From Candidatus Sungiibacteriota bacterium (GTDB taxonomy: Bacteria > Patescibacteriota > Minisyncoccia > Sungbacterales > JACQCQ01), in contig JACQCQ010000008.1 of the NCBI GenBank assembly GCA_016201505.1, positions 1-42,835 on the forward strand: a stretch of DNA of 42,835 nucleotides, in the 5' to 3' direction. Under the pieces are notes generated by a model. The model had not been told where the DNA came from and made no database searches. It saw only the letters and a program-made list of their open reading frames with translations. Positions 1,436 to 42,835 of the stretch are shown piece by piece. The translations under genes were made by a program, and so were the position numbers. Each line of letters opens with the position of its first letter. Positions within the stretch are counted from its first letter, which is position 1.

Positions 1436-2014
1436 TTAAACAAAATGGGAAATAAATGAATCCCTATGAATTGGCAATGGAGCGTTGCCTTTCAGCATTT
1501 CAATATGCGCCCGCGTGCCGTAGCCTTTGTGCCGATCAAAATCCCAACCGGGGAATTTTTTGGCCATACGCACCATATATCGATCGCGGCGAATTTTGGC
1601 AATAATTGAAGCCGCCGCGACAACCGGAATCTTTGCGTCTCCGCCGATGACAATTTTATGCGGCAGATCGGCGCGCATGACGAGCGCCCCGTCTAAAAAT
1701 ACAAAGTGCGGCCGCTGCGCGCATTTCAAAATTAACCGCGCTGCGCCTCGATAGGTCGCCTCTTGAATATTCACGCGGTCAATGACTTTTGCTGAAACAT
1801 ACGTCTGATGCCAGACGAGTCTCGGATGATTGACGATGAACTGATACCAGAGCTCGCGTTTTTTGGGGCTTAGCTGTTTTGAATCCTTAATTTTCCCGAG
1901 TTCCTTCGTCCAAAAGCGAAAGCCTTTTGGCGCAATCACGAGTGCCACTGAGACTGGCCCGGCCAAAGGGCCCCGTCCCGCCTCATCAATTCCGCCGATT
2001 AACATCCGCTTCAT
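1436..2014 (-). CDS. rnhB: Ribonuclease HII
   Basis: GIDEAGRGPLAGPV, DSKQLS, AASIIAK..RD and HKGYGT motifs. Confidence 0.95.
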   Translation of the reverse strand: MKRMLIGGIDEAGRGPLAGPVSVALVIAPKGFRFWTKELGKIKDSKQLSPKKRELWYQFIVNHPRLVWHQTYVSAKVIDRVNIQEATYRGAARLILKCAQRPHFVFLDGALVMRADLPHKIVIGGDAKIPVVAAASIIAKIRRDRYMVRMAKKFPGWDFDRHKGYGTRAHIEMLKGNAPLPIHRDSFISHFV

Positions 2015-2081
2015 GAATTCATCATACATTCAGTCCTTGTCCACTACCAACGATCGCTCCGAGGCCTATACTATAGAAGCA

Positions 2082-5000: not shown

Positions 5001-6464
5001 ATTTTACCCGCAGGAAAAGAAATGACATATGACATTGCAATGGCATATCCCGCGAATAATTTCATTGCTAACGGCTTTGTGGTGCATAACTCATCCGGCA
5101 TGAAGCGCTACTTAAAAGAACTAAAACCAACCGAGCTGGAAGATTTAATCGCCATGGTCGCCCTCTATCGCCCCGGCCCGATGGAGTATATCCCTTCATA
5201 CATCAATCGCAAGCATAAAAAAGAGACCGTTACGTATTTGCATCCGAAGCTGGAGCCAATTTTGGGTCCGACCTACGGCATCGGCGTCTATCAGGAGCAG
5301 ATGATGCAGATCGCGCGGGATCTGGCCGGATTTACGCTCCCCGAAGCCGACACGCTGCGAAAAGCCATCGGCAAAAAGATTAAATCGCTACTGGCCGAGC
5401 AGGAAGAAAAAATGATCACTGGAATGATTAAAAATGGAATTAGCAAAGAAACGGCGGCGGCTGTATGGGGACTGTTTCCTGCTTTTGCACGATACGGCTT
5501 CCCCCGAGCTCACGCAGCTTGCTACGCCTTGGTCGCCTATCAAACAGCCTACTTAAAGGCCCATTTTCCCGCCGAATACATGGCGGCGCTGATGACGGCC
5601 GAAGGGTTTGAAATCGAGCGCGTCGCTTTCCTGATTGATGAAACGAAAGCCATGGGGATTGAGGTGTTGGCACCCGATGTCAATGAAAGTTTCGAGACGT
5701 TTACGGTCGTTGATAACGGGAACGAAAAAGAGAAAGAGGCAAAAATTCGATTTGGCCTTTCGGCCATCAAGAATGTCGGATCAAATATTGTCGAATCAAT
5801 TATTGCTTCGCGAAAAAAGAGCGGAAGATTCGTTTCGCTGACCGATTTTATTGAGCGGCTACCGGTAAAAGATTTAAACCGAAAATCAATTGAAGCGCTC
5901 GCCAAGTGCGGCGCACTCGACTCGCTCGCCGAGCGTAATCAAATTTTAGCAAACATGGACGTATTGCTTGAGTTTGCCCGAAACCGCGAACGCGAGGCCC
6001 TGTCAAACCAAAATTCATTGTTCGGCGGCGAGAGCGCGACTTTTTCAACGCTTAAGTTGCAGGAGGTGCCGCCAGCGGATAAACGCGAGCGGCTGCAATG
6101 GGAAAAAGAATTGCTCGGTCTGTATATCTCGGAGCATCCACTCGCCTCATTTATCCAGAAATTAAAAGCCAGTGACGCCATCCCCATTCGCGGACTTGAT
6201 GCCGAATCAATACGAGGCCGCGCGATTTCTATTGGGGGCGTGGTTTCCGGCATTAAAAAGATTATAACCAAAAGCGGCGAATCGATGTTATTTGTCACGG
6301 TCGAAGACCCAACCGCGAAAACCGAGGTTCTGGTATTTCCCTCGCTCTTAAAATCAAACCCGACGATCTGGCAGATGGATAAAATTTTGCTGGTTCGCGG
6401 CAAGGTCTCGGAAAAAGACGGCGAGCCGAAATTGCTTTGCGATCAGGTGAGCGAGCTAGTCTAA
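2082..6464 (+). CDS. dnaE: DNA polymerase III alpha subunit (intein-containing)
   Basis: FVHLHVHSHYSLLDG PHP domain, GPGRGSAAGS, PDIDLDF, KMDFLGL and a C-terminal OB fold. Start re-placed at MSQRF. Confidence 0.96.
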   Translation: MSQRFVHLHVHSHYSLLDGLTKLDELIARTKELGMDAVALTDHGNLYGAIEFYQKAKKAGIKPIIGCEMYIASRAMEDKEPGLDDKRFHLTVLARTNEGYQNLIKLVTAAHLKGYYYKPRIDHKILREHAAGLIALSGCLNGEIPRAIRAGQMERAEELIREYQEIFGKEYFYLELAPKRSYEEKEGVNDALIKLSKSLGVPVVATNDVHYCRPEDKEAQDILVSVQTGARFEDENRLTMREDNYSIRSPEEMASFFTHIPEAIENTARIADSIEVKIELGKNKIPPFETPEGFTQESYLEKLCLEGIKNRYAISAGDLKNSKEAGVAAVRERYNYELEIIKKTGFTSYFLVVQDFVNWARAQNIIVGPGRGSAAGSLISYVLNITNIDPLHYNLLFERFLNPERIAMPDIDLDFADTGRDQVIDYVQKKYGRDKVAQIVTFGTMAARAAIRDTGRALGMSYSFCDQIAKLIPFNPTQGMKEGWLIQCLRDVEELKNLYERDAEAKRLIDAALKLEGVVRHASIHASGLVVAPEPLVQYVPLQYATRAKGDEKEEVLVTQYDMHGVEALGLLKMDFLGLRNLSIIERTVEIVRQTRGIEIDIDTLALDDRPTYKLFQEAKTTGVFQFECLAGDTIVSNTTIEKLYKKGKPSLRSVFLDKGTVHNNKVLKIMRSGKKEIYALIADDGRYIKATINHKFLTADGWKKLENIRPGEKVLTKIRAKSEIWNTCQICNRQIDGQKNGKSRFCYRCSASFYSNPTKEMSRTKMSSSRRRFFLNGGQPWNLHKTSATNNINILYENGKKISKALTGKTLEMRVGKMEAEKWRLRLQQRRRGQNNPMYGKPSPHRKGGYRADLGHYVRSNWEADFARILNLRKVEYAYEPQRFELKRRDGSICSYTPDFYTPHDGTFYEIKGWFHDADKEKIELFKKQHPDRRFVLISATRFAELALQYKNLIAWECPEIPAGFGWRVVKEILPAGKEMTYDIAMAYPANNFIANGFVVHNSSGMKRYLKELKPTELEDLIAMVALYRPGPMEYIPSYINRKHKKETVTYLHPKLEPILGPTYGIGVYQEQMMQIARDLAGFTLPEADTLRKAIGKKIKSLLAEQEEKMITGMIKNGISKETAAAVWGLFPAFARYGFPRAHAACYALVAYQTAYLKAHFPAEYMAALMTAEGFEIERVAFLIDETKAMGIEVLAPDVNESFETFTVVDNGNEKEKEAKIRFGLSAIKNVGSNIVESIIASRKKSGRFVSLTDFIERLPVKDLNRKSIEALAKCGALDSLAERNQILANMDVLLEFARNREREALSNQNSLFGGESATFSTLKLQEVPPADKRERLQWEKELLGLYISEHPLASFIQKLKASDAIPIRGLDAESIRGRAISIGGVVSGIKKIITKSGESMLFVTVEDPTAKTEVLVFPSLLKSNPTIWQMDKILLVRGKVSEKDGEPKLLCDQVSELV
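3966..5090 (+). mobile_element. Intein (375 aa) with an internal endonuclease domain
   Basis: Exteins GVFQFE | SSGMKRYL; starts CLAGDT, block B ATINHKFLT, ends YDIAM..NNFIANGFVVHN; lower GC than the host gene. Confidence 0.93.
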
Positions 6465-18021: not shown

Positions 18022-18603
18022 ATCTTTTACATCGTTATGGCCGCCCCGCACTTTTATTAGCTTTTGAGCTAATAAAAGTGCGGGGAGGAAAGTCCGAACA
18101 CTTGACTCTTACATGAGTTGTCGTGATAGCGGCTAACGGCCGCCCCGAGTCGTGCATGGCATGGAAATTCGAAATTCGAAACCCTAAATTCTAAACAAAT
18201 TCGAAAACTCAAAACTTCGAAATTCAAAACGTTTAGGATTTAGCAATTAGGATTTAGGATTTGCGCGCTGTGCGCGGCCAAAGGTGAAAAGTAATCCGCG
18301 AAGGATTTCTCGTGATTGGTAACAGTCACGAGTGGAAAACCCTATCTAGTGCAAGGACAAACACCGTGCATGGCGCGGAAATTCGAGATTCGAACCCCTA
18401 AATTCTAAACAAATTCGAAAACTCAAAACTTCGAAATTCAAAACGTTTAGGATTTAGAAATTAGGATTTAGTGTTTCCGCGCCGTGCGCGGTGACAAGTA
18501 GTCCGCTCGACCCCGAGAGTAATCGAGGGGCTAGACAGATGGCCATACCGGCAAATGAAAATTTTGCCGAGAACAGAATTCGGCTTATGAATGTAACAAG
18601 ATA
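18022..18603 (+). ncRNA. rnpB: RNase P RNA with two ~126-nt hairpin insertions
   Basis: GAGGAAAGTCCGAAC near 18085 and AACAGAATTCGGCTTAT near 18572 (P4); P2 TATGGCC/GGCCATA; long P3 hairpin; ends approximate. Confidence 0.9.
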
Positions 18604-23772: not shown

Positions 23773-24570
23773 TTATCTCAAATACCCGACTTGCTTTAAC
23801 CAATAGTCATTCTCCCACTCCCAAAGAGTTTTGGCGGCGAGAAAGGCCTTGGCGTCGCGGTAATAATAGGGAAACTCTTTTAGTTCGATATCCCCTTCCG
23901 GCCCATTAAACTCATGCTCCGCTTCCGGACAGGGCTTCACTGCATTTCGTCTGCCATTTCTGATTTTGGACCTTCCGCCTTTTTCGCGAAGCTTGGCGCC
24001 ACATTTTTTGCAGACCGAATGCTGATTGATACGCAAGATCCAGCGCGTTTCTACGGCCCGAGTAAGCCCCAGGGCTTTTTTCATCTGATACTCTTGCAAG
24101 GCCTGAATGTAGGCCGCAGTCTGCAAATTATATTCGGGATAAAATCCGGGCGAGGTTTTTATATCCAGCACGCCGAACTTCCCATCAATGATGCAAAGCG
24201 CATCGACAGTCCCCGCATAGCGGTGTGACCTGGACCAAATTTGTTTTTCAATATACTCGGGAATAAATTCCATCTTCCGTTCTTCGTTAAATTGCATAAG
24301 TGTTTCCAGGGCGGCGGCAAATTCGGGCGGGATCTCGACAGCTGCACCGGTTAAAAGTTTTTGGGCAGTTTCATGAATCAGCGAGCCTTCTTCGGCTGAT
24401 TTATTCTTTACCTCTTCGGCTGATTCATACGAGCCCATCTCGCGAAAAAATGAATCGAGCGCAGGCTTTGATTTAATATCCAAAATCTTGGTAACCCGCG
24501 GATACCAAACCCCGTCAATGTGATATCCCATCTCCTCTTTAAATTTATTGCCGTCAGAAAACCATCCCAT
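23773..24570 (-). CDS. PD-(D/E)XK nuclease superfamily protein
   Basis: YPRVT.IL, GS.IH, YAGTVD, LDIKTS, QTAAY; C-terminal CxxC..C..H. Confidence 0.8.
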   Translation of the reverse strand: MGWFSDGNKFKEEMGYHIDGVWYPRVTKILDIKSKPALDSFFREMGSYESAEEVKNKSAEEGSLIHETAQKLLTGAAVEIPPEFAAALETLMQFNEERKMEFIPEYIEKQIWSRSHRYAGTVDALCIIDGKFGVLDIKTSPGFYPEYNLQTAAYIQALQEYQMKKALGLTRAVETRWILRINQHSVCKKCGAKLREKGGRSKIRNGRRNAVKPCPEAEHEFNGPEGDIELKEFPYYYRDAKAFLAAKTLWEWENDYWLKQVGYLR

Positions 24571-24767
24571 TAGAAAATTAATCAGTTTAACTTTGGTAAT
24601 GCTTACACGTATATTCAGTATAGCAGTTTACTAACATATTCCTTATCATTTTAATTTTCTAACGGGATAATCCCGTTAGAAAATTAATCAGTTTAACTTT
24701 GGTAATGCTTACACGTATATTCAGTATAGCAGTTTACTAACATATTCCTTATCATTTTAATTTTCTA
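24566..24767. repeat. Tandem pair of CCC(A/G)TTAGA elements (101 bp plus a truncated copy)
   Basis: 24566-24666 and 24672-24767 are near-identical; TIR CCCRTTAGAAAATTAA / TTAATTTTCTAACGGG. Confidence 0.9.
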
Positions 24768-24918
24768 GAGTTCAAACGGACCTCGCTTATTCGTGTAGCT
24801 ACCTTTACTACCCCTATTGTGCTGGTTGAGGCGTTTCCGCAAGTCGGCAGTGAACCCGGTATAGAATCTGTTTGATTTTAAGCTTCTCAGTACATAGACA
24901 TAGAACATAGATAGGTCT

Positions 24919-28266: not shown

Positions 28267-29304
28267 CTAGCTGACTTTAACCGAGCGCAAAAATTCGGCG
28301 GCCGATTCGGGTGTAATGGTCGAGATTTCAATGCCGGTGGCAAACTCAAATCCAGCCAGCGTACTTGTTATCGGCAAAATCTCGAGATGCCAATGATAGT
28401 GCGAGTATCCCGAAGCGGATTTCGCCGGTGCGGTATGAATAAAGAAGTTGTGTGACGGATCGTTTAGGCCTTTATCGAGTTTGGCGAGGGACACCCGCAA
28501 GGCCTCGGCAAAGGGCGTTATTTCGTTATCGCTGATATTTTGAAATTCAGAGGCATGGAGTTTGGGAAAAATCCGCACCTCAAATGAGGTATGCGAAGCA
28601 AAGGGCGCAAATGCCACAAATAAATCATTTTCAAAAATAATACGGTGTCTTTCTTGCAATTCAAACTCAATGATTACGCAATGAATGCATTTTTTATTCT
28701 CGCGAAAGTATCGTTCGGAACCGGCCAGCGAGCGCAACAGTTCAGGCGAGACAACAGGAATGGCGATTAACTGTGAATGCGGATGCGTAATGGAAGCTCC
28801 CGAATGCGGGCCATGGTTATGGATAATAGAAACGTATTCAACGCATTCTTCAAACGACAACGTGCTCATCCGTTCGCGATAGCTACGAATTACGAGGGCG
28901 GCTTCGTCATTTGTCATCTGGGCAATCGACTTATGATGATCGCGGGATACGATAACTTCGTGAAAGCCATTGCCGTCGGTAAACTTATGCGGACCCAAAG
29001 GTAAAATAACGGGGCAGATCGGGCTGGGATAAAATGCCGGAAACTTGTTGGGGATCACCTCGATAAACCAATCGGCTGCGGCGGGGCTATCAAAATCAGT
29101 TACGATTTCTCCCTTTTTTGAAATGACTAATTTGGCATCACTTTCTAATTTCTCAAAGGGACAGGTCTCGATATTGTTCGTTGGCTTTTCTTCTTTCGAG
29201 ACAAAATCATTTGGGCGCCGGGCGCGGCCCGTCGCAATCACCACCCATTCGCCGGTCACAACATCCTGGCGCAGTTCAGTTAATTTTTTTCCAGCATCAA
29301 GCAT
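28267..29304 (-). CDS. galT: Galactose-1-phosphate uridylyltransferase family protein
   Basis: RARRP, CPF, NKFPA, GASITHPHSQ, YHWHLEI. Confidence 0.9.
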   Translation of the reverse strand: MLDAGKKLTELRQDVVTGEWVVIATGRARRPNDFVSKEEKPTNNIETCPFEKLESDAKLVISKKGEIVTDFDSPAAADWFIEVIPNKFPAFYPSPICPVILPLGPHKFTDGNGFHEVIVSRDHHKSIAQMTNDEAALVIRSYRERMSTLSFEECVEYVSIIHNHGPHSGASITHPHSQLIAIPVVSPELLRSLAGSERYFRENKKCIHCVIIEFELQERHRIIFENDLFVAFAPFASHTSFEVRIFPKLHASEFQNISDNEITPFAEALRVSLAKLDKGLNDPSHNFFIHTAPAKSASGYSHYHWHLEILPITSTLAGFEFATGIEISTITPESAAEFLRSVKVS

Positions 29305-29587
29305 ACCGGGTAGTATAAATTTGGCTATTTTTTTGATTATAGCAGAATTCTTTCAACATACGCTTTAATAGTCTAGCGCCCTGACTCGTTTTTAAATAGT
29401 GCCCTCTTCGCTTCGCATCTGATTCATTCAAATAGGCTTCGTAATGAATCAAATGCCAGGGCGCGTAAGGCTCGGTAGACTTATTCTTTTTGGAATTATG
29501 TTCCACGATTCTTTTTCTTAAATCTTTTGTGTAACCAACGTAGAGTCCATTCGCTCTATTTTGTAAAAGATAGATATAGTGGAACAT
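29297..29587 (-). CDS. GIY-YIG nuclease family protein
   Basis: YIYLL..LYVGYTKDLRKRIVEHN..ST..PW.LIHYEAY. Confidence 0.9.
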   Translation of the reverse strand: MFHYIYLLQNRANGLYVGYTKDLRKRIVEHNSKKNKSTEPYAPWHLIHYEAYLNESDAKRRGHYLKTSQGARLLKRMLKEFCYNQKNSQIYTTRYA

Positions 29588-29619
29588 AATTCACAGCCAA
29601 ATTTTCACTACCTGGCATA
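29302..29619 (-). mobile_element. Inverted-repeat-flanked GIY-YIG cassette with TATG duplication
   Basis: 25-bp imperfect IRs at 29302-29326 and 29595-29619 (20/25 identical). Confidence 0.75.
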
Positions 29620-33596: not shown

Positions 33597-34292
33597 ATGG
33601 GTGCACAAATTTACGAAGATAATCCGTTTGAAGATGAAATAGTAGCCAAAGAGTGGATAAATTCAATCGAGAATGAGCACGGAATGATCCGTGATAAAGA
33701 ACTCTATCCCAAACTTAAAGATTGGGTTGTTTTAACGGCTGCTGAAGTCATCGTAGAAATTGGCTCCGGACAAGGAATTTGTGCAGAAAAATCCATTCCT
33801 AACTCAATGCAGTATATTGGCATTGAACCATCAGAGACATTAGTTAAACGAGCTGAAGAACTATACCTCAGACCAAATAGAAAATTTATTATTGGGAATG
33901 CTTATAATCTACCCTTACCAGATTTGTATGCAGATGCAGCGTTTTCGATAAATGTTTGGTTTCACCTTAGAGATCTCCCGACTGCTTCAAAAGAACTACA
34001 GCGTATACTGAAACCGGGAGCCAGGTTTTGTGTCATGACAGTGAATCCCAATATGAATAATGTTTGGGAGTCGTTTTACTTTGATTATAAAAAGGAAGGA
34101 AATGCCATTGATGGCAAGGTGATGATCCCAGTAAACCCGTTATCACGAAATGTATTCTACCAACATACTTTGGAAGAAATTTTGGAGGCTCTCAAATCTA
34201 ATAATCTTGTGATGGAAAAGATCGAAAACTTTGGCTTTACCGATACCAAGGATGACGGACTATTTATTAATATTATTGGACATAAAAATTAG
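33597..34292 (+). CDS. Class I SAM-dependent methyltransferase
   Basis: VEIGSGQG, GNAYNLP, RILKPG. Confidence 0.88.
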   Translation: MGAQIYEDNPFEDEIVAKEWINSIENEHGMIRDKELYPKLKDWVVLTAAEVIVEIGSGQGICAEKSIPNSMQYIGIEPSETLVKRAEELYLRPNRKFIIGNAYNLPLPDLYADAAFSINVWFHLRDLPTASKELQRILKPGARFCVMTVNPNMNNVWESFYFDYKKEGNAIDGKVMIPVNPLSRNVFYQHTLEEILEALKSNNLVMEKIENFGFTDTKDDGLFINIIGHKN

Positions 34293-34470
34293 AGAAATTA
34301 CCTATACCAAAAGCACTTAGAGAGTACTTTTTGGTATGGGTCTCTCACTTTTAACGGCGAATATAAGACACCAACGACGCTACCTTAAGCAAGCCTCAAG
34401 TGAAAATACGCTTTCTAGAAACGCTCGACAAAAGTTTCGAAGAAACTACCATCGGCAAGCCTAAAACGAA

Positions 34471-34590
34471 GAGCCCTTTACCAAAACGCTCGGCCGACGA
34501 TGCGACCCGGTTCTCGCGAAACGAGATCGCAAGGAGGCCGGCGAGTCGAAATTTCCGGTGGGAAATGAGACGCTTTTGGTAAAGCGGCTC
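34471..34590. repeat. Inverted-repeat element immediately after the secY stop
   Basis: GAGCCCTTTACCAAAACGCTC ... GAGACGCTTTTGGTAAAGCGGCTC. Confidence 0.7.
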
Positions 34591-34593
34591 GAG

Positions 34594-35859
34594 CTAGTCA
34601 TATTCGCGCATCACGAGCTGCGCATCCACTTGCTTCATGGTCTCGAGAATTACCGAGACCACAATGAGTAACGCCGTACCACCGAGCGTAATGGCTTTAA
34701 TGCTTAGAAGATTTTGAATAATTAGGGGCAGAACCGCAATCGCGCCAAGAAATAAGGCGCCGGCCAGCGTAATGCGCGAGAGAATTTTAGAAAGATACTC
34801 TGCAGTCGGACGCCCCGGCCGAATGCCTAAAATAAATCCGCCTTGTTTTTGGATGTTTTCTGAAATGGCACCGGGATCAAAGGTGAGGCCGGTGTAGACA
34901 TAGGTGAAGGCAAATACCAAAAGAAAATAAACCGCGGCATAAATCCAGGTATTATTGAAGGCTGCAATCAAGAAATGCGAGGTTGCTTGCGCCCAGCCGG
35001 CACTCACCCCGGCTAAAATATTTCCCACTAGTCCCGGAAATAATACAATCGAGATCGCAAAAATAATCGGAATAACGCCGGCCTGATTGACGCGCAACGG
35101 CAAATGCGTCGAGACGCCGCCATAAACGCGCATGCCGCGGACACGCTTGGCATACGAGACCGGAATATTGCGCTGGCCTTCTGAAATTAAGACGACGCCG
35201 CCGATCACAGTTAAGGCAACGATTAAGAAAACGAGATAAACCGGAACCTGCGAGGGATCAAACGTCGTTAATGCATTTCCGAAGTCGCTCGGGAGACGCG
35301 AGACGATACCAGCAAAAATCAAAAGCGAAACACCGTTCCCAATTCCCTTTTCCGTGATCAATTCACCCAGCCACATCAAGACCAGCGTCCCGGCAGTCAC
35401 TACCGCAATATTTGTGAGAAATCCAAAGGGCGTTAAATGCGGCAAAACCTGCTTACGGATAAGTAATATCAGAAGTCCGTAGGACTGCAAAATGGCGAGC
35501 GGCACTGTGAGTATCCGCGAATACTGATTGAAGCGCTGGCGGCCGGCCTCACCCTCTTCCTGGTAGATTTCTTTGAGCCGCGGGAAAATCATCGTCAGCA
35601 ACTGCATAATAATCGAGGCCGTAATATAGGGCCCGACACCGAGCATGACAATCGAAAGATTATTTAAAGCACCACCCGAGAAAATATTTAAGAGGCCGAA
35701 GAATTGATTTCCCTGAAAAAATGAGCGAAGGCGGGTAGGATCAACCCCCGGCACAGGAATGGCGGCGAACAAGCGGAATACGACGAGCATCCCCAAAATA
35801 AACAGGAATTTGTTGCGAAGTTCAGGGGTTGTTACGATTTGTTTTAATTTTTGCAACAT
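34594..35859 (-). CDS. secY: Preprotein translocase SecY
   Basis: LGVGPYITASII, GIGNGVSL, AGVIPIIFA, GIRPG. Confidence 0.97.
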   Translation of the reverse strand: MLQKLKQIVTTPELRNKFLFILGMLVVFRLFAAIPVPGVDPTRLRSFFQGNQFFGLLNIFSGGALNNLSIVMLGVGPYITASIIMQLLTMIFPRLKEIYQEEGEAGRQRFNQYSRILTVPLAILQSYGLLILLIRKQVLPHLTPFGFLTNIAVVTAGTLVLMWLGELITEKGIGNGVSLLIFAGIVSRLPSDFGNALTTFDPSQVPVYLVFLIVALTVIGGVVLISEGQRNIPVSYAKRVRGMRVYGGVSTHLPLRVNQAGVIPIIFAISIVLFPGLVGNILAGVSAGWAQATSHFLIAAFNNTWIYAAVYFLLVFAFTYVYTGLTFDPGAISENIQKQGGFILGIRPGRPTAEYLSKILSRITLAGALFLGAIAVLPLIIQNLLSIKAITLGGTALLIVVSVILETMKQVDAQLVMREYD

Positions 35860-35861
35860 GG

Positions 35862-35970
35862 AGTAATCTCTAATATACGAATACACACCAAATACACAAA
35901 TAACATACCGGCATATTCGATACTCGTTTTAGCATACTCGTATATTTTGCCAGAATTTGTATATTCGCGA
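35862..35970. repeat. Short-period repeat hairpin insert at the rplO/secY junction
   Basis: AATATACGAAT..AAATACACAAAT ... ATTTGTATATTCG. Confidence 0.65.
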
Positions 35971-36405
35971 TTACTTCCTCACTGATCCTCCAGCATTCTC
36001 GATCATGGCGCGGGCACTCTTCGAAACCGGAATGCCAACCAATGAAAGATTCTTAGACATGGGAGTATTGCCAAGAATCTTTACCCGCGGCAGTTTCCCG
36101 TTTCTGGTTGAAATCATCTTCTTGCGAGCCAAGTTTCTCATTGAGACGATGTCGCCTTTGGCGAAGGCATCCTCAAGTCTCGTAAGCGAGATGGCCACGA
36201 CCGGCGTCTGAAACGAGCGGAACTTATAGCCGCGAAGCTTGGGGATACGTTTAATAACATCGCGCATCTCCGGCCGAATTTTATGCCCGGCGCGAGCTTT
36301 TTGGCCTTTCGTACCGCGGCCAGCGGTAGTCCCCCGTTTTCCGCCGCGCCCGACCCTCTGGCCGCGGCGTAAATGTTTACTTCTTTCTAGTGAATAGAGT
36401 TGCAT
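35971..36405 (-). CDS. rplO: 50S ribosomal protein L15
   Basis: RVGRGGKRGTTAGRGTKGQKAR. Confidence 0.95.
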   Translation of the reverse strand: MQLYSLERSKHLRRGQRVGRGGKRGTTAGRGTKGQKARAGHKIRPEMRDVIKRIPKLRGYKFRSFQTPVVAISLTRLEDAFAKGDIVSMRNLARKKMISTRNGKLPRVKILGNTPMSKNLSLVGIPVSKSARAMIENAGGSVRK

Positions 36406-36408
36406 GTG

Positions 36409-36891
36409 TTATTCAAATGACTGTAATTGCTTTAACGCCTCGATGGTCGCTCTGGCATTGTTTAATTTGTTGGCTGATCGGGAGATAATTTTTGAAGTCA
36501 GATTCTGAATGCCGGCGAGATTGGCGACAGTTCGCACGGGACCGCCAGCGATAAGTCCGCGGCCTTCAGAGGCTGGGCGGAGCTTTACGATAGCGCTGCC
36601 ATATTTAGCCATGACGTCATGGGCGATACTGCCTGCTTTCGTAATTGGGACTTGCAGCATATTGCGCTTGGCGTTACTCGCCGCCTTATCGATTGAAAGA
36701 GCAACGTCAGCGCCTTTGCCAATCCCAACCGCAACGCGCCCCTTTCGGTTTCCCATCACAATAGTAGTACGAAAACTAAATCGGCGGCCGCCTTTTACGA
36801 CACGGGCAACACGCCGGATATCCAGCGTCTTCTGATCGTATTCGGACCGTTCTCTTGGCGGTCCTTGTCGTCTAAATTCACGTCGTGCCAT
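36409..36891 (-). CDS. rpsE: 30S ribosomal protein S5
   Basis: RVARVVKGGRRFSF. Confidence 0.96.
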   Translation of the reverse strand: MARREFRRQGPPRERSEYDQKTLDIRRVARVVKGGRRFSFRTTIVMGNRKGRVAVGIGKGADVALSIDKAASNAKRNMLQVPITKAGSIAHDVMAKYGSAIVKLRPASEGRGLIAGGPVRTVANLAGIQNLTSKIISRSANKLNNARATIEALKQLQSFE

Positions 36892-37083
36892 GCCTTTGAT
36901 GTCTAAATTTGTAAAGTCCCTGCTGTAGCAAATGTAGCCGCGGCCAAGAGCACCCAGCCAAGTTTTTCAGCGGCTGTATGCCCACCTTGAAATAGCAAGT
37001 TATCATAGCTGAAAAACTTGGGCGGGTAAAGGTTTTGTGACATAATTTTTTTCATAGTCAGGCAAAAATTCTGACAAAGCCCT
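36892..37083 (-). repeat. CCCGCCCAA hairpin element filling the rplR/rpsE junction
   Basis: GGGCTTTGTCAGAATT...CCCGCCCAAGTTTTTCAGC-loop-GCTGAAAAACTTGG. Confidence 0.85.
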
Positions 37084-37455
37084 TTAAAATGCTAGTCCAG
37101 CTTTACGCGCCGCATCGGCTAAGGCTTTAATCCGACCATGATATTTATATCCGCCGCGATCAAACACAACCGCTTTTATCTTTTTCTCCAAAGCTTTTTT
37201 AGCAATCTCGGCGCCGACATAGGTTGCTCGTTCGATCGGGGTTGGTTTCTTCTTTCCCCCTGCTCTTTTCATTGCGTCATGGGCTGAAACAATGGTTTTC
37301 CCTACCGCGTCATCAATAATTTGAGCATACATATGCTTCCCAGAGCGGAAAATTGAAAGACGGGGCAGAGTTCGGCTCACAGCGCGAAGTTTGAAGCGGG
37401 TCCTTCGCGCGCGCGTTTTTTGCTGTATTCGTTTTCGTGATGAAGTAAGTCCCAT
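37084..37455 (-). CDS. rplR: 50S ribosomal protein L18
   Basis: [25 protein letters not shown]. Confidence 0.96.
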
Positions 37456-37460
37456 ATGAG

Positions 37461-37588
37461 TTAAACCCTAAATCCGAAATTCAAAATACGAAACAAATTC
37501 AAAGCTCCAAACTCGAAACGTTTTTGATTTTGGACTTTTATGATTTTCATATTTGTTTAGGATTTAGGATTTCGTGCTTTGGGTTTTT
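37461..37588. repeat. Heptamer-repeat hairpin insert at the rplF/rplR junction
   Basis: AAACCCTAAATCCGAAAT ... TTTAGGATTTAGGATTTCG; same family as the rnpB and lepA inserts. Confidence 0.85.
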
Positions 37589-37589
37589 A

Positions 37590-38135
37590 CTACGCAGCGC
37601 CCGTTGAGGCTTTCTTACCGGCTTTGCGGCGGATCGTCTCGCCCAGGTAATGAATCCCTTTGCCTTTATAGGGCTCGGGCTTTTTAAGGCTCCTGATTTT
37701 GGCAGCCGTCTCGCCGACCGCATCTTTACTGAAACCAGAAACCGTAATCACGTTTTTTTCTACTTTAAATTGAATCCCGTCGGGCGCATCAAACATAACC
37801 GGATGCGAAAATCCAAGCGCGAAAACTAAATTCTTGCCTTCCAAATTTACTCGATATCCCACACCCTCCAACTCCAATTTTTTTTCAAATCCTTTCAAGA
37901 CTCCTTCAATCGAGTGAGCCAGAATCGCGCGCGTTAGGCCCCAGAAAGCCTGAGTCTTTTTAGTTTTTTGTGCCGGGTTAATGAGGATCTGATTGTCTTT
38001 CACTGCCACTTTAATTTCCGGCCGGATGTGTCGAACAATCTCGCCTTTGGGGCCTTTCATTTTTACTTCGTCACCAGAAAGCGTGACGGTGACACCTCCG
38101 GGGACTGAGATCGGTTGTTTTCCAATGCGGCTCAT
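37590..38135 (-). CDS. rplF: 50S ribosomal protein L6
   Basis: MSRIGK, PEPYKGKGI. Confidence 0.97.
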   Translation of the reverse strand: MSRIGKQPISVPGGVTVTLSGDEVKMKGPKGEIVRHIRPEIKVAVKDNQILINPAQKTKKTQAFWGLTRAILAHSIEGVLKGFEKKLELEGVGYRVNLEGKNLVFALGFSHPVMFDAPDGIQFKVEKNVITVSGFSKDAVGETAAKIRSLKKPEPYKGKGIHYLGETIRRKAGKKASTGAA

Positions 38136-38526
38136 GCCAATTTTGTTGAAATTATTGAGTAAGGATGCCCGAACGAAAAGAATTGCGCTACAAAACTGAG
38201 CACCCGCCCAAGTTTTTCAACTGATGTGCATACCATTAATTTCGTATTTCTTGTTCGCATTTTCATTTCTTGATTCATAGTCTTGAAAAATTTGGGCGGG
38301 TAAAGGTTTTGTTGCATCATTTTTTTCATAGTCATTCAAAAATTCTGACAAAGCCCTTACCCCGCCCCAATCTAAACGACGTTCGACCGAACCATCAAGA
38401 TTATGAGCCGTCAGACGGCTTCGCCTTCCGTTATCATTTACCCCATCGTTCATGGTTGAGATTGGGGCGGGGTAAGGTTTTGGTATAAAATTTTGTTCGC
38501 TTCGCTCCATAATTCTAACAAAGCCC
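38136..38526 (-). repeat. Two tandem CCCGCCC(C)AA hairpin elements at the rpsH/rplF junction
   Basis: TAAGGGCTTTGT occurs at both about 38529 and 38359; two GC stems. Confidence 0.85.
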
Positions 38527-38925
38527 TTACCAAATTTCTGCTATAATTTCTCCGCCTAATTTTTTCTTTTTGGCTTCATCATTTGAGAGAACCCCGGCGG
38601 AAGTTGAAATCACCGCGATGCCATGGCCGTACTTTACCGGCCTAATTTCAGAGGCTTTGACATAGAGGCGGCGCGAGGGTTTTGAGATTCTGCGTCCTCC
38701 AGCGAATGCCGGAGTCCCATCTTTATACTTCAGTGATATCTCCATGAACTTTCGCGCTTTCTTTCCCTTCTTTTCAATGCCGGCAATATAGCCTTTCCGC
38801 TCTAAGACCTTGGCAATGGATTCTTTTACATTGGAATGCGGAACAACCACCGCCTCTTTCTTGGCCCGGTAGCCATTCTGTATTCGTATGATCATATCCC
38901 CGATGGGATCAGTTATGACTGACAT
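38527..38925 (-). CDS. rpsH: 30S ribosomal protein S8
   Basis: DPIGDMIIRI.N, ISKPSRR.Y, GGEII. Confidence 0.97.
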   Translation of the reverse strand: MSVITDPIGDMIIRIQNGYRAKKEAVVVPHSNVKESIAKVLERKGYIAGIEKKGKKARKFMEISLKYKDGTPAFAGGRRISKPSRRLYVKASEIRPVKYGHGIAVISTSAGVLSNDEAKKKKLGGEIIAEIW

Positions 38926-39157
38926 ATGCCAGTGCTCTCTAAATTTTAGAGTGATTTAACGAATAAAATTTAGTTGAGTCACTGAGCACCCCGCCCCAAT
39001 CTAAACGACGTCCAGCCGAACTGTCGGGGCTGTAAGCCGCCAGGCGGCTTCGCTGTAGATTGTCTGTGGTTTGGTAATTCATGGTTGAGATTGGGGCGGG
39101 GGAAGGTTTTGGCATAAATTTTGTTCGCTGTCGTGCTCCATAATTTAGACCAAGCCC
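38926..39157 (-). repeat. CCCGCCCCAA hairpin element at the rpsN/rpsH junction
   Basis: Homologous to 38357-38526. Confidence 0.85.
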
Positions 39158-39343
39158 TTACCAGGAAGATTTTTTAACTCCGGGAATTTCGCCGCGATTT
39201 GCGAGTTCCCGAAAACAAATCCGGCATAAATCAAAATCGCGCATATAGCCGTGCTTCCGTCCGCAGCGGAAACAGCGCCTGACTTTGCGGGATGAAAATT
39301 TCGGCTTCTTTTTGGACCTGGCGATAACTGAAGTTTTTGCCAT
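39158..39343 (-). CDS. rpsN: 30S ribosomal protein S14 (Zn-binding type Z)
   Basis: [24 protein letters not shown]. Confidence 0.96.
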
Positions 39344-39352
39344 CTTTTTGCT

Positions 39353-39413
39353 TATCGACTACTGACCACGGACTACCGCACAACTGTATGCCGTAGTCTG
39401 TAGTCAGTAGATA
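39353..39413. repeat. Heptamer hairpin at the rplE/rpsN junction
   Basis: CTACTGACCACGGACTAC ... GTAGTCTGTAGTCAGTAG. Confidence 0.75.
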
Positions 39414-39416
39414 CAG

Positions 39417-39953
39417 TTATGTCTGAATGGGAAAGCCTAAACTGCGAAGGAGCGACATGCCTTCTTCTTTTGTTCTGGCAGTTGTGACAATTGTAACTTC
39501 CAAGCCAAAAATAAATCGGACGTCTTCACCGATCATTTCCGGAAAAACAATATGCTCTTTGACGCCAATCGTCAAGTTGCCGCGGCCGTCAAAGGCCGTT
39601 GCCGGAATACCCTTAAAATCGCGTGTTCGGGGAAGAGCAATACCCACCAGTCTATCCAAAAATTCATACATGCGTGCCCCGCGTAGCGTCACCGAGTAGC
39701 CGATGATCTGCCCCAGGCGCGTCTTAAATGAGGCGATGGCCTTTTTAGCCCGGCGCGGTACCGCGTGCTGCCCCGTAATGGCGGACAAGGATTTTTGTAC
39801 AATCTCACGCTGCTTTTCATCGACGATACGGCCCACGCCGGAGTTTACAACTACTTTTATAATTTTCGGCACCGCCAAAATATTCGAGTATTCGAACTCT
39901 TTTTTTAGTGCCGGTATGGCTTCCTTTTGGTATCGTTCTTTTATAACTGACAT
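39417..39953 (-). CDS. rplE: 50S ribosomal protein L5
   Basis: VTLRG.RMYEFLDRL, RDFKG, FDGRGN. Confidence 0.97.
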   Translation of the reverse strand: MSVIKERYQKEAIPALKKEFEYSNILAVPKIIKVVVNSGVGRIVDEKQREIVQKSLSAITGQHAVPRRAKKAIASFKTRLGQIIGYSVTLRGARMYEFLDRLVGIALPRTRDFKGIPATAFDGRGNLTIGVKEHIVFPEMIGEDVRFIFGLEVTIVTTARTKEEGMSLLRSLGFPIQT

Positions 39954-40336
39954 GTCAGTGTGCTTAAAATTATTGAGTGAGTGAAGCGAACGAAAAGAAT
40001 TTCGCTACAAAAGTGAGCACCCCGCCCAAGTTTTTCAGCGGCCGTATGCTCACATTGAAACAGCACATCATCATGGCTGAAAAATTTGGGCGGGTAAAGG
40101 TTTGGTGTGCCGCATGAGGCGCAAACGACCATAGCGGCCGAGGCGGAAAATGAGGCAGGAATCTCAACAACCTCACCGCGTTTTCCTTCCTGCCGCGGGC
40201 GGATATGCTTTTTCTTTATATTGATGCCTTCGGCCAGCAGTCTCGCCTCCTTCGGCCAGACATGCAAAACCTTCGCGGTTTTGCCGCGATCTTTGCCGGC
40301 CATGATCTGAATCGTGTCGCCCTTTTTGATTTTCAT
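39941..40336 (-). CDS. rplX: 50S ribosomal protein L24, C-terminus replaced by repeat sequence from about 40103
   Basis: MKIKKGD..AGKDRGK; after CASCG the frame reads into the repeat (NLYPPKFF). Confidence 0.85.
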   Translation of the reverse strand: MKIKKGDTIQIMAGKDRGKTAKVLHVWPKEARLLAEGINIKKKHIRPRQEGKRGEVVEIPASFSASAAMVVCASCGTPNLYPPKFFSHDDVLFQCEHTAAEKLGRGAHFCSEILFVRFTHSIILSTLTCQL

Positions 40337-40473
40337 GCCAATTTTGTCGAAATTATTGAGTGAGTGAAGCGAACGAAAAGAATTTCGCTACAAAAGTGAG
40401 CACCCCGCCCAAGTTTTTCAGCGGCCGTATGCTCACATTGAAACAGCACATCATCATGGCTGAAAAATTTGGG
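40337..40473 (-). repeat. CCCGCCCAA element (partial), identical to 42699-42835
   Basis: 137-nt identity by eye. Confidence 0.9.
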
Positions 40474-40690
40474 CTTTGCGGCGATAGGAATTTCTCTGCC
40501 GGACAATCACCGCGCGGACCACATCTTTTTTCTTTACCTGCTTTCTGGGTTCTGCAATTTTAACCGAAGCCACGATAATATCCCCCAGCTGGGCGTATCG
40601 CCGTCTCGTTCCGCCCAGCACTTTAATGACCTGGAGCAGTTTGGCTCCAGAATTATCGGCGACTTGTAACATGGATCGCGGCTGAATCAT
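40454..40690 (-). pseudogene. rplN: 50S ribosomal protein L14, truncated at a repeat (likely assembly artefact)
   Basis: [19 protein letters not shown]; lacks the C-terminal ~50 aa (IRFD..RIFGPV). Confidence 0.85.
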
Positions 40691-40831
40691 ACCTAGTGTT
40701 ATAACTTCGGAAGGCCACTTGAGGCGACCAGCTGAAACCGATAGTTATCCTTTCGACTTTTTATCTTTATTCTGTACGTATTCTTTTCCATGATTGATAT
40801 TCTGCATCCGAAGTTATAACGACCGGGCATA
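40688..40831 (-). repeat. 144-bp TATG-flanked inverted-repeat element at the rpsQ/rplN junction
   Basis: GTTATAACTTCGGA / TCCGAAGTTATAAC; homologous to 41300-41443. Confidence 0.9.
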
Positions 40832-40834
40832 TAA

Positions 40835-41110
40835 TTATTCTTCTTCAGTAACGGCTGTATTTCCTTTTGATTCAAGGACTTCTACGACTTTCCAGCGTTT
40901 ATCTTTGGACAGGGGCCTGGTTTCCTGAATCTTGACCACATCGCCAACTTTAAGCGAGTTATCTTCATCATGCACCTTAAATTTGGTCGAACGCTTTTCG
41001 TATTTTAAATACTTAGGATTTTTTTTGAGGCGCGAAACCAAAACCACCGCAGTTTTCTGCATTTTGTTTGAAGCCACCGTGCCTTCTAATGTTCGGGGAT
41101 GCTTTTCCAT
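40835..41110 (-). CDS. rpsQ: 30S ribosomal protein S17
   Basis: [20 protein letters not shown]. Confidence 0.96.
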
Positions 41111-41119
41111 ATTACTGTA

Positions 41120-41302
41120 TTACTGTTCTCGAATAACGGTCAGAATTCTCGCGATATCTTTTTTGACTCCGGCAAGCGACTTTACGTTCTTTACTTTTTT
41201 TCGTTCAGTATCAAATCGCAGGGTCTCGACTTTGGCGCGAAGATCAAGCAGCTTGTTGGTTAACTCATCTTTTGTTTTTTTCCGCAGTTCAATGGCTTTC
41301 AT
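41120..41302 (-). CDS. rpmC: 50S ribosomal protein L29
   Basis: ELRKK..EL, KKDIARILT; operon position. Confidence 0.93.
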   Translation of the reverse strand: MKAIELRKKTKDELTNKLLDLRAKVETLRFDTERKKVKNVKSLAGVKKDIARILTVIREQ

Positions 41303-41443
41303 ACCCGGTGTTACAATTTCGGAAGGTCGCTCGGTGCGACCACCTGAAACCGATGGTTATCCTTTCGACTTTTTATCTTTATTCTGTGCGTATTCTTTTC
41401 CATGATTGATATTCTGCATCCGAAGTTATAACGACCGGGCATA
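41300..41443 (-). repeat. 144-bp TATG-flanked inverted-repeat element at the rplP/rpmC junction
   Basis: TATGCCCGGTCGTTATAACTTCGGA ... TCCGAAATTGTAACACCGGGTATG. Confidence 0.9.
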
Positions 41444-41839
41444 GACAAATCTCGTCTTCATGGGTAATTTGTGAGCCGCGCGCTCGAGCGCTTGCTCGGC
41501 CACTTCTTTCGTAACTCCATCCATCTCAAACAAAATCCTGCCGGGTTTTACCGGATAAACATAAAACTCGACACCGCCTTTGCCGCCGCCCATGGTTACC
41601 TCCGGTGGGCGTCTCGTGATCGGCTTATCGGGAAATACACGAATCCAGACTTTACCGCCGCGCTGAATATAGTGCGTGATGGCGCGACGTGCGGCTTCAA
41701 TTTGGCGCGCCGTAATCCAGCGTCGCTCAAGAGCTTTTAATCCGTAACTGCCATAGGCGAGTGCCGTCCCTCGAGTCTCAACGCCGGGAGAACGCATTTT
41801 TTGCCACTTTCTGTGTTTTACTTTTTTAGGCTGCAACAT
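41426..41839 (-). CDS. rplP: 50S ribosomal protein L16
   Basis: [30 protein letters not shown]. Confidence 0.97.
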
Positions 41840-41841
41840 AA

Positions 41842-42027
41842 TTATTCGCCATTCGTCGTTTGAAAATCGTTCACTCGCCCCGGCGCGGCTCGCTCACTCA
41901 CGTCCGCGCTCGCTCTTTTGCCTCGCAAAATCCAAGCCCGCGAGCACTCCCAAGTGTTTTCAAACAAGAATGTCTCACCGGAGGCTTTCTGAATGTAGCC
42001 CTTCGGGCTTTGATTCACATTAATCAT
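41842..42027 (-). other. Hairpin insert and 61-codon bridging ORF at the rpsC/rplP junction
   Basis: GTTTGAAAA...TTTTCAAAC stem with GCTCGCTC repeats; the ORF overlaps the rpsC stop and ends 2 nt before rplP. Confidence 0.6.
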
Positions 42028-42698
42028 ACATTTTTCTTTTCTTCAAAAATCTGGCCCTTATAAATCCAGACTTTGATGCCAATGACGCCGTAGGTGGTAT
42101 ACGCCTCTTTTTGAGCATAATCAATATGAGCACGCAGCGTCTGCAAGGGGATACGCCCCTTTTTAATCCATTCATAGCGAGCCATTTCCGAACCATCAAG
42201 CCGCCCCGAGATGGCAATTTTTACGCCTTCCACACCTTTGGACTGGATTACTTTTTCGGAGGTTTGTTTTAGAACGCGACGAAAAGGCAGACGTTTTTCA
42301 AGATCATCGGCGATCATCTGACCGACAATTGCCGCATGCGCTTCAGGCGTTTTTACCTCCTCGACGGTAAGTTTTAAGTCGCGCTTGTCAGCGGCCGCAT
42401 TTTTATTTATGCCGCTAATTTTTTTAGCAATTTCTTGTTTTAATTTTTCAGCCCACTCTCCCCCGCGGCCGATCAAAATTCCGGGACGTGAAGTCCGGAT
42501 GATGATATTCATGGTCGTGGGCGACCGTTCAATTTCGATGGCATCGATGTGTGCCGCTCTTAATTTTTTCCGCAGCCACTCGCGAACAACCGTGTCTTCG
42601 CGTAAATAATCTTTATATTTTTTTTCATTAAACCAGCGCGACTTCCAGGTCGTGTTAATGCCTAATCTGAAAATGTAGGGGTGGACTCGGTGGGTCAT
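42024..42698 (-). CDS. rpsC: 30S ribosomal protein S3
   Basis: VHPYIFRLG..W.SRWF, RPGILIGRGG, GRIPLQTLR, GIKVWI. Confidence 0.97.
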   Translation of the reverse strand: MTHRVHPYIFRLGINTTWKSRWFNEKKYKDYLREDTVVREWLRKKLRAAHIDAIEIERSPTTMNIIIRTSRPGILIGRGGEWAEKLKQEIAKKISGINKNAAADKRDLKLTVEEVKTPEAHAAIVGQMIADDLEKRLPFRRVLKQTSEKVIQSKGVEGVKIAISGRLDGSEMARYEWIKKGRIPLQTLRAHIDYAQKEAYTTYGVIGIKVWIYKGQIFEEKKNV

Positions 42699-42835
42699 GC
42701 CAATTTTGTCGAAATTATTGAGTGAGTGAAGCGAACGAAAAGAATTTCGCTACAAAAGTGAGCACCCCGCCCAAGTTTTTCAGCGGCCGTATGCTCACAT
42801 TGAAACAGCACATCATCATGGCTGAAAAATTTGGG
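42699..42835 (-). repeat. CCCGCCCAA element upstream of rpsC (runs off the window)
   Basis: Ends ...CGACAAAATTGGC directly before the rpsC ATG. Confidence 0.9.

Follow-up and report, generated by a model that had tools for sequence, protein, structure and literature searches.

How did two nearly identical 144-nt inserts come to lie exactly on the start codons of two ribosomal protein genes? The question is raised by a contig of Candidatus Sungiibacteriota bacterium (GenBank assembly GCA_016201505.1, contig JACQCQ010000008.1), one of the 20 contigs of an 816-kb genome; its 42,835 nt are the whole stretch of DNA that was analysed and are called the window below. The S10/spc ribosomal protein operon occupies the right end of the window on the minus strand, and the two inserts, copies A and B, precede rplN and rpmC in it. 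They are probably non-autonomous deletion derivatives, or miniature inverted-repeat transposable elements (MITEs), of very small mobile elements of Patescibacteria, the parent of which carries a GIY-YIG nuclease gene on a start codon borrowed from the host.

Two inserts on native start codons

Copy A (40688..40831, minus strand) lies between the rpsQ stop and the rplN start, and copy B (41300..41443, minus strand) at the rplP end and the rpmC start, both spans including the two flanking TATG. An earlier note on this DNA had described them as homologous, equal in length and flanked by TATG, and they do align over 144 nt without a gap and with 12 differences (92% identity; E 1.1e-54 by BLAST within the genome). 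Each consists of 140 nt plus the duplicated TATG and has inverted ends of ~23 nt, of which the 5′ arm contains a single bulged base; these ends span 40805..40827 (5′, first bases CCCGGT) and 40692..40714 (3′) in copy A, and 41417..41439 (5′) and 41304..41326 (3′) in copy B. In the sense RNA, the ends plus both UAUG copies pair to form a stem of 23-24 bp (z of -3.9 and -4.0).

The upstream TATG of copy A (40828..40831) stands at the original position of the rplN start codon and now opens a frame of 43 codons, which with its TAA covers 40699..40830 and stops within the 3′ inverted end, 8 nt before the rplN ATG. The downstream TATG (40688..40691) contains the working rplN start, ATG 40690-40688. 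In copy B, the equivalent frame and TAA (41311..41442) stop 8 nt before the rpmC ATG (41302-41300), so that the layout of frames described in the earlier note holds for both copies; copy B also makes rplP terminate within the element (..ARSL). Because the rplN and rpmC proteins begin as in 13 relatives (MIQ.RSM.. for rplN in 13/13, and MKA.ELR.. for rpmC in the closest ones), A and B sit exactly on native start codons. The same note had held that excision restores canonical junctions. Indeed, removal of 140 nt and one TATG in silico leaves the rpsQ stop, four bases ending in T and the rplN ATG, which is a normal spacer, and at copy B lets the rplP frame close at a TGA overlapping the first rpmC codons. 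Comparison of the S10 operon with that of more distant relatives agrees with this, their junctions being compact and, in one of them (L092), TATG overlapping each start.

The Rfam 15 covariance models, among them those for introns and for leaders of ribosomal protein operons, gave no relevant family at E of 1 or below in the interval 34000-42835, and the lone Rfam match, a chance one to a miRNA model, was outside this interval. The 43-codon frames, which are the sole frames in A and B, matched no NCBIfam model, and the GIY-YIG domain is not encoded by the 144-bp elements themselves. Short, devoid of a transposase gene, bounded by terminal inverted repeats and a TATG duplication, dispersed in several copies and related to a longer enzyme-coding element with the same ends, A and B are, as objects, a new MITE family.

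Full-size elements encoding a GIY-YIG nuclease

A full-size element is present in the window itself. It covers 29302..29619 on the minus strand (318 bp), consists of TATG, inverted ends, a GIY-YIG gene and TATG, and lies on the ATG (29304-29302) of a GalT-like gene, 28267-29304. The UPF0213-like nuclease ORF of 96 aa (29297..29587, minus strand), the TGA of which overlaps the host start, matches Pfam PF01541 with E 7.7e-14 (52.2 bits, cut-off 22.6), and its sequence matches the UPF0213 structures 1zg2 and 1ywl with E 3.7e-6 and 4.3e-4. The GIY-YIG profile has 16 matches in this genome and finds matches in 36/41 related genomes. Inverted repeats flank 27 of the 44 GIY-YIG genes examined, with spans nearly all of 260-325 bp, and fall into several unrelated end families.

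The kinship of these cassettes with the 144-bp elements, proposed in the earlier note, has been borne out at three levels. First, the window cassette has the same kind of duplication and similar ends. Second, a cassette from the same taxonomic family (L058) has the very ends of the 144-bp element between two TATG copies, and the same right-end TAA, 8 nt before the host ATG, closes its nuclease ORF. Third, scanning metagenomes for the same ends spaced 265-295 nt apart gave 71 matches, and among the 38 with extended ends 34 contain a GIY-YIG gene, all in the sense direction and with E of 1e-25 to 1e-47. A host ORF of at least 100 codons follows 28 of these 38, with nine more cut by the locus end, vs only three of the 33 matches lacking extended ends, an internal control that includes two borderline elements.

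For 28 of the 34 distinct elements with ends, the upstream copy of the ATG is where the nuclease ORF starts. The first residues of this ORF (MPG..) are encoded by the left end and its last (..SKL or ..SKLY) by the right end, and many elements have no methionine ahead of the catalytic YVY motif. Since the nuclease ORF begins at the duplicated ATG, it is the target duplication that supplies the start codon, the element proper having none. The distance from the nuclease stop to the host ATG is 6 nt in 12 elements, 8 nt in five and 14-46 nt in 11 (n=28). In the source genome, an intact element on another contig (G000:C7:36239-36553) reads through 102 codons from its duplicated ATG and stops 9 nt before the host ATG. 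A second end family (CCCGTTAGAG.., ATGAG duplication) is built alike, and its stop overlaps the host ATG. Selection on the nuclease is strongly purifying, the median ratio of non-synonymous to synonymous substitution rates (dN/dS) being 0.09 over 41 pairs.

Target duplication and start codons across the family

Other members in the source genome were found by covariance model and paired-end regular-expression searches. There are 12 with CCNGGT-type ends, comprising three full-size GIY-YIG cassettes (the window one, the intact one on C7 and a decayed one on C17, an end of which is 4 nt short of the next ATG) and nine of MITE size, and eight of the 12 are in start-codon position. One of them, copy C (G000:C18:2204-2347), is on a different contig, on the ATG of pyrG; it equals A and B in length, is 68% identical and lies between two TATG copies, with a 43-codon frame that is likewise open and stops 8 nt before the host ATG. 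Other copies do lie at duplicated ATGs, and the refuting condition set in the earlier note, random positions without ATG duplication, is for the most part not fulfilled by the targets tabulated. The exact pattern of the A/B/C subfamily has no match in public metagenome contigs or genome contigs, and the subfamily is known only from this genome.

The wider family extends well beyond it. The covariance model gave matches in 15/101 related genomes and a strict end pattern, applied to 401 genomes of the class, in 11 genomes; the strict pattern missed the source genome's own copies because one arm has a bulged base. Together, the two sets yield 22 distinct elements, 20 of which have identical flanking 4-mers (TATG in 17, CATG in two and TATA in one). 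Because the inner and outer bases co-vary, these are a 4-bp target duplication and not a longer inverted repeat. In 17/22 an ORF of at least 100 codons begins at the 3′ ATG, and two more are cut by contig ends.

A larger sample came from an end scan over one genome per species for TATG plus CCCGGT, 110-140 nt, and ACCGGG plus TATG, which gave at least 120 matches, mostly in metagenome-assembled genomes of Patescibacteria; by our own arithmetic, ~34 chance matches are expected at uniform base composition. The counts rest on 81 matches in 80 of the loci. Extended inverted ends were found in 68 of the 81, and in these MITEs the 3′ ATG is the start of an ORF of at least 100 codons in 62/68 and of at least 60 codons in 65/68. 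For comparison, 245 of the 4767 TATG in the source genome (5.1%) are the first start codon of a called ORF, a proportion that becomes 29% once TATG inside called ORFs is set aside. The start-codon association far exceeds both nulls, and against the 29% one it has a binomial probability of 3e-27, an exact figure on which not to lean as related copies are not independent. MITEs need no expression of their own, and their start-codon excess therefore suggests that the targeting is partly mechanistic, beyond what selection would leave. A subterminal GC hairpin, considered as a marker of orientation, was dropped, being present in only 11/68 elements and on either side.

Filled and empty orthologous sites, a sign of mobility, are seen for a sister subfamily. 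One site in the genome G443, which has eight copies of that subfamily, is filled (flanks 169 nt apart) but empty in three other genomes, G461, G456 and G460 (8-20 nt). In one of the three, the start codon of the orthologue lies in a lone TATG, and another contains the same MITE subfamily at other places.

Proposed mechanism

These observations can be assembled into the following scheme. The full element, of ~300 bp, consists of two ~20-nt inverted ends (CCCGGT..) and one GIY-YIG gene of the UPF0213 family encoding ~95 residues. Its insertion duplicates a 4-bp target, nearly always TATG, whose ATG is the host start codon. The nuclease would be translated from the upstream ATG copy, reading MPG.. 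through the left end and stopping 6-8 nt before the downstream copy, from which the host gene restarts. In this way, the element would take over the transcription and initiation signals of the host gene, which would most likely be translated by termination-reinitiation after the nearby element stop. The nuclease, perhaps acting on paired ends, would move the full elements. The 144-bp copies, which keep only the ends and the mini-frame, would probably be moved in trans by an intact element, for which G000:C7:36239-36553 is the candidate helper in this genome; their mini-frame may be translated, with coupling feeding the host gene. That the GIY-YIG protein is the mover of the elements is inferred from sequence evidence of three kinds, namely its being the sole ORF, its purifying selection and its co-occurrence with the ends. 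The further proposal that the elements are an undescribed class of prokaryotic DNA transposons, and the smallest known (~300 bp, with a GIY-YIG transposase, a start codon obtained by duplication of the host TATG, a second copy and a coupled stop given to the host in return, and swarms of MITEs across Patescibacteria that include inserts in rRNA genes), stands in our estimation at about an even chance.

Upstream signals were surveyed at two sets of loci (L103-L182 and L223-L292) over 45 nt upstream of the 5′ TATG. A carried ribosome-binding site was ruled out as an explanation, Shine-Dalgarno-like motifs being rare. Such motifs precede the upstream ATG at 9/68 MITE sites and 2/38 cassette sites (11/106 together), and the host ATG at 1/68 and 0/38, respectively. 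A TATAAT-like box 4-9 nt before the upstream ATG was observed at 24/106 sites vs 5/106 in a control window. As a lead only, many target genes may be leaderless, in which case the borrowed 5′ ATG would be essential.

Evidence against the proposed origin, and the 43-codon frame

Several observations weigh against the origin proposed here, and they concern the sites, the parent frames, the chemistry and the mini-frame. As to sites, one member in the source genome has its TATG two codons before the stop of a gene, another is flanked by TATA, and a 127-bp member with CCAGGT ends lies inside the 16S rRNA gene with CTGG on both sides (G000:C18:110036-110162, L097). The position of this last insert is the conserved GCTGCTGG/CAC site (Rfam small-subunit rRNA match, 538 bits), and this member ties the family to the known non-intron inserts of rRNA genes in the Candidate Phyla Radiation (CPR). 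As to parent frames, that of the window cassette closes 20 codons after the duplicated ATG, and that of the L058 cassette is likewise broken, so that both nucleases require an internal ATG start. As to chemistry, we know of no precedent for a GIY-YIG nuclease as a transposase, and no 4-bp staggered insertion chemistry is, to our knowledge, established for the GIY-YIG fold.

As to the mini-frame, the chance of its being open on shuffles of the interior is 0.09-0.27 per copy for A/B and C, and three open copies in two lineages therefore prove little. The frame is closed in 46 of the 68 end-scan MITEs, in all 21 of the 22-element set that have an upstream ATG and, as judged by eye, after 23 and 31 codons in two weaker copies in the source genome. 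Because most copies are closed, a full-length frame is not needed for persistence. One antisense frame, which holds the complement of the host ATG, is also open in 17/68 MITEs vs 8.9 expected, and from this excess non-coding constraint may add to the openness signal.

The sense frame is nevertheless open beyond such expectations. The frame from the upstream ATG reaches the right end in 22/68 MITEs vs 7.4 expected, with two and five in the other sense frames, and in 22/68 it stops at most 12 nt from the host ATG or overlaps the start. After clustering (65-80% identity tried), it is open in 14/55 clusters (p about 0.002). In G443, eight copies of one subfamily that are 78-99% identical lie at eight different gene starts, and the frame is open in 8/8; the antisense frame mentioned above is open in seven of the eight. 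The other refuting condition of the earlier note, frames closed at background frequency, does not hold in that they are open at about three times the shuffle expectation, and the enrichment of the antisense frame leaves the signal only a moderate one.

The sequence of the peptide is another matter. Of the changes that separate A from C, 14 are synonymous and 34 non-synonymous, distributed 14/14/20 over the codon positions, and the amino-acid identity is 23/47 in frame vs 22/48 and 20/47 in the other two frames; the mini-ORFs of one MITE subfamily elsewhere have dN/dS of 0.38-1.19 over six pairs. Purifying selection on the peptide is therefore detected neither between A and C nor in that subfamily. 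Since the parent ORF runs end to end, the 43-codon frame is a miniature of it and not a conserved peptide, and its openness is inherited, probably mildly favoured and not required. The earlier note had spoken of preserved translational coupling. What has held of this is the parent layout, kept in A, B and C; coupling itself is a conjecture from that layout, the peptide is not conserved, and most frames elsewhere in the family are closed.

Alternative explanations

Of the readings that compete with a derivation from GIY-YIG elements, the one that survives best, though unlikely, is that the MITEs are moved by some other enzyme, of the host or of an unrelated transposon, and that the GIY-YIG gene is cargo or a homing-type nuclease housed in the same shell. 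It would account for the fact that MITEs outnumber intact cassettes in this genome, and it draws on the lack of any GIY-YIG-fold transposase known to us or found in the open-access literature and bioRxiv. It is opposed by the ~300-bp elements holding nothing but the nuclease ORF between their ends, by the strong purifying selection on that ORF and by several unrelated end families each enclosing a GIY-YIG gene.

It is rather less likely that the elements have been co-opted as cis-acting RNA of the ribosomal protein operon, with a functional hairpin (an RNase III site, a stabiliser or a bridge to the second AUG) and an irrelevant frame. The closing stem of 23-24 bp, which pairs both UAUG copies with z of -3.9 to -4.8, is in keeping with such a role, as are the member inside the 16S rRNA gene, where stems of this kind are usually cut out, and the closed frames of most family members. 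Yet the stem is simply made of the transposon ends, no Rfam family matches, and copies stand at unrelated genes (pyrG, the GalT-like gene and many others). As an account of what the inserts do to the host, this explanation is compatible with an origin from a mobile element.

Very improbable is the idea that the 43-codon frames are small-protein genes with a function of their own. It could invoke the three open copies in the genome, each with its ATG at a former gene start, and the family-wide enrichment of open frames, but the A vs C changes, the equal identity in all three frames, the dN/dS of the mini-ORFs and the absence of an NCBIfam match all argue against it. Finally, an assembly artefact or chance similarity, suggested by the misassembly of the same contig at another repeat family ~200 bp away, is practically dismissed by the 12 differences between the copies, by independent short-read contigs bridging each copy to unique flanks, and by a third copy on another contig and hundreds of relatives.

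Read support and other repeats in the window

The bridging contigs are Logan contigs of four public groundwater runs from one study, possibly of the source sample, which are uninformative on transcript starts, strands and rare empty alleles. They span both copies. One join links copy A to rplN (40474-40831), and another leads from the far edge of copy A, distal to its gene, across rpsQ and rpmC into copy B (40802-41385). A joint skipping copy A or B was not seen in the contigs of the four runs. Among the public runs listed for this region, none is an RNA run.

The window contig itself is misjoined at 40107/40108 and 40473/40474, at copies of another repeat family (D1). Owing to this, the Pfam match is limited to positions 1-73 of 122 in rplN and, with ribosomal_L24 (PF17136), to positions 1-41 of 65 in rplX, and the remainder of L14 was not found anywhere in the assembly. 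Public contigs extend past 40474 and 40108 into minus-strand sequence that normally continues both proteins, and the truncations of rplN and rplX are therefore assembly artefacts.

At least seven more palindromic inserts lie between ribosomal protein genes, mostly just before start codons, at 36952-37027, 38202-38301, 38337-38495, 38989-39101, 39950-40107, 40333-40473 and 42695-42835. These seven belong to two other end families (ACCCGCCCAAGTTTTT.. and CCCCGCCCCAATCT..), whose ends resemble those of GIY-YIG cassettes elsewhere in the genome (C11:69930 and C5:21117). In relatives, palindromic inserts of yet other kinds occupy these junctions. A decayed GIY-YIG gene, covering profile positions 1-57 with one internal TAG, is found at 24744-24908 just downstream of pgk, and overlaps two tandem 98-nt repeats (24564-24767) that are 99% identical. 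Elsewhere in the window, the gene for the DNA polymerase III alpha subunit (1863-6464) is interrupted by an intein (Intein_splicing, residues 712-1076), within which there is a weak endonuclease match, and 18151-18491 has two 127-nt direct repeats, 93% identical and 214 nt apart, in a stretch free of long ORFs.

Significance

If the GIY-YIG protein does move the elements, it would be a new enzyme class in DNA transposition, and the full element a near-minimal autonomous transposon. The design would let a parasite be expressed while doing next to no harm in tiny, gene-dense genomes, which is unusual. Annotation is affected too, since many 'hypothetical' genes of 40-50 codons and UPF0213 genes at the gene starts of Patescibacteria are parts of such elements, and the start codons of neighbouring host genes are easily miscalled. 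Repeats of this kind break assemblies, of which the window contig is an example. A short insert that is precise to the start codon could also find use as a tool.

Comparison with known systems

The parent design appears to be new. The text of open-access papers and of bioRxiv preprints contained nothing on GIY-YIG genes bounded by inverted repeats or on start-codon MITEs. The nearest published case is that of insertion sequences in CPR rRNA genes, which encode GIY-YIG proteins and are neither introns nor homing-like (PMC11270868). These inserts share both the phylum and the protein family with the elements reported here, and the passages of that paper covered here, which concern the rRNA inserts, make no mention of inverted ends, of a target duplication, of MITE derivatives or of sites at start codons. 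The 16S member of our genome fits the non-intron inserts as they are set out in those passages.

The window nuclease resembles the stand-alone GIY-YIG proteins of UPF0213/COG2827 in both size and sequence. UPF0213 proteins are annotated as being of unknown function, and here the gene is bounded by inverted ends that encode its first and last codons; a report of UPF0213 mobility was not found in the open-access literature or bioRxiv. The GIY-YIG homing endonucleases, both free-standing and intron-borne (the T4 Seg proteins and I-TevI are examples), are likewise products of selfish genes and have this fold; their genes are inserted between host genes or inside them and are co-expressed with these. 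Homing enzymes have large DNA-binding domains, lack inverted ends and target duplication, and are copied into the same locus by repair, whereas the elements here occur at many unrelated loci with inverted ends and duplications. The NCBIfam model for group I intron endonucleases matches the window nuclease only with E 0.0016 (18.5 bits vs a cut-off of 56).

A small single-domain nuclease accompanied by many short, palindromic, non-autonomous copies is also known from REP/RAYT and from the PATE derivatives of IS200/IS605. Unlike the elements here, those systems rely on an HUH tyrosine transposase, leave the target unduplicated and have no use for start codons. Rickettsia palindromic elements are similar to the A/B family in being palindromic mobile repeats compatible with reading frames, but they lie inside host ORFs and become part of the host protein, whereas A and B precede the host ORF as a separate upstream frame. 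The closest parallel in size and setting is provided by the Correia/NEMIS elements of Neisseria and the ERIC elements of enterobacteria, which are bacterial MITEs co-transcribed within operons. In common with the A/B family, they measure ~100-150 bp, are bounded by terminal inverted repeats, duplicate a short target, occur in many copies between the genes of operons and form long RNA hairpins. The A/B family differs from them in three respects: its target duplication is the start codon itself (TATG), its apparent autonomous partner encodes a GIY-YIG nuclease and not a DDE transposase, and it derives from a parent that is coding end to end.

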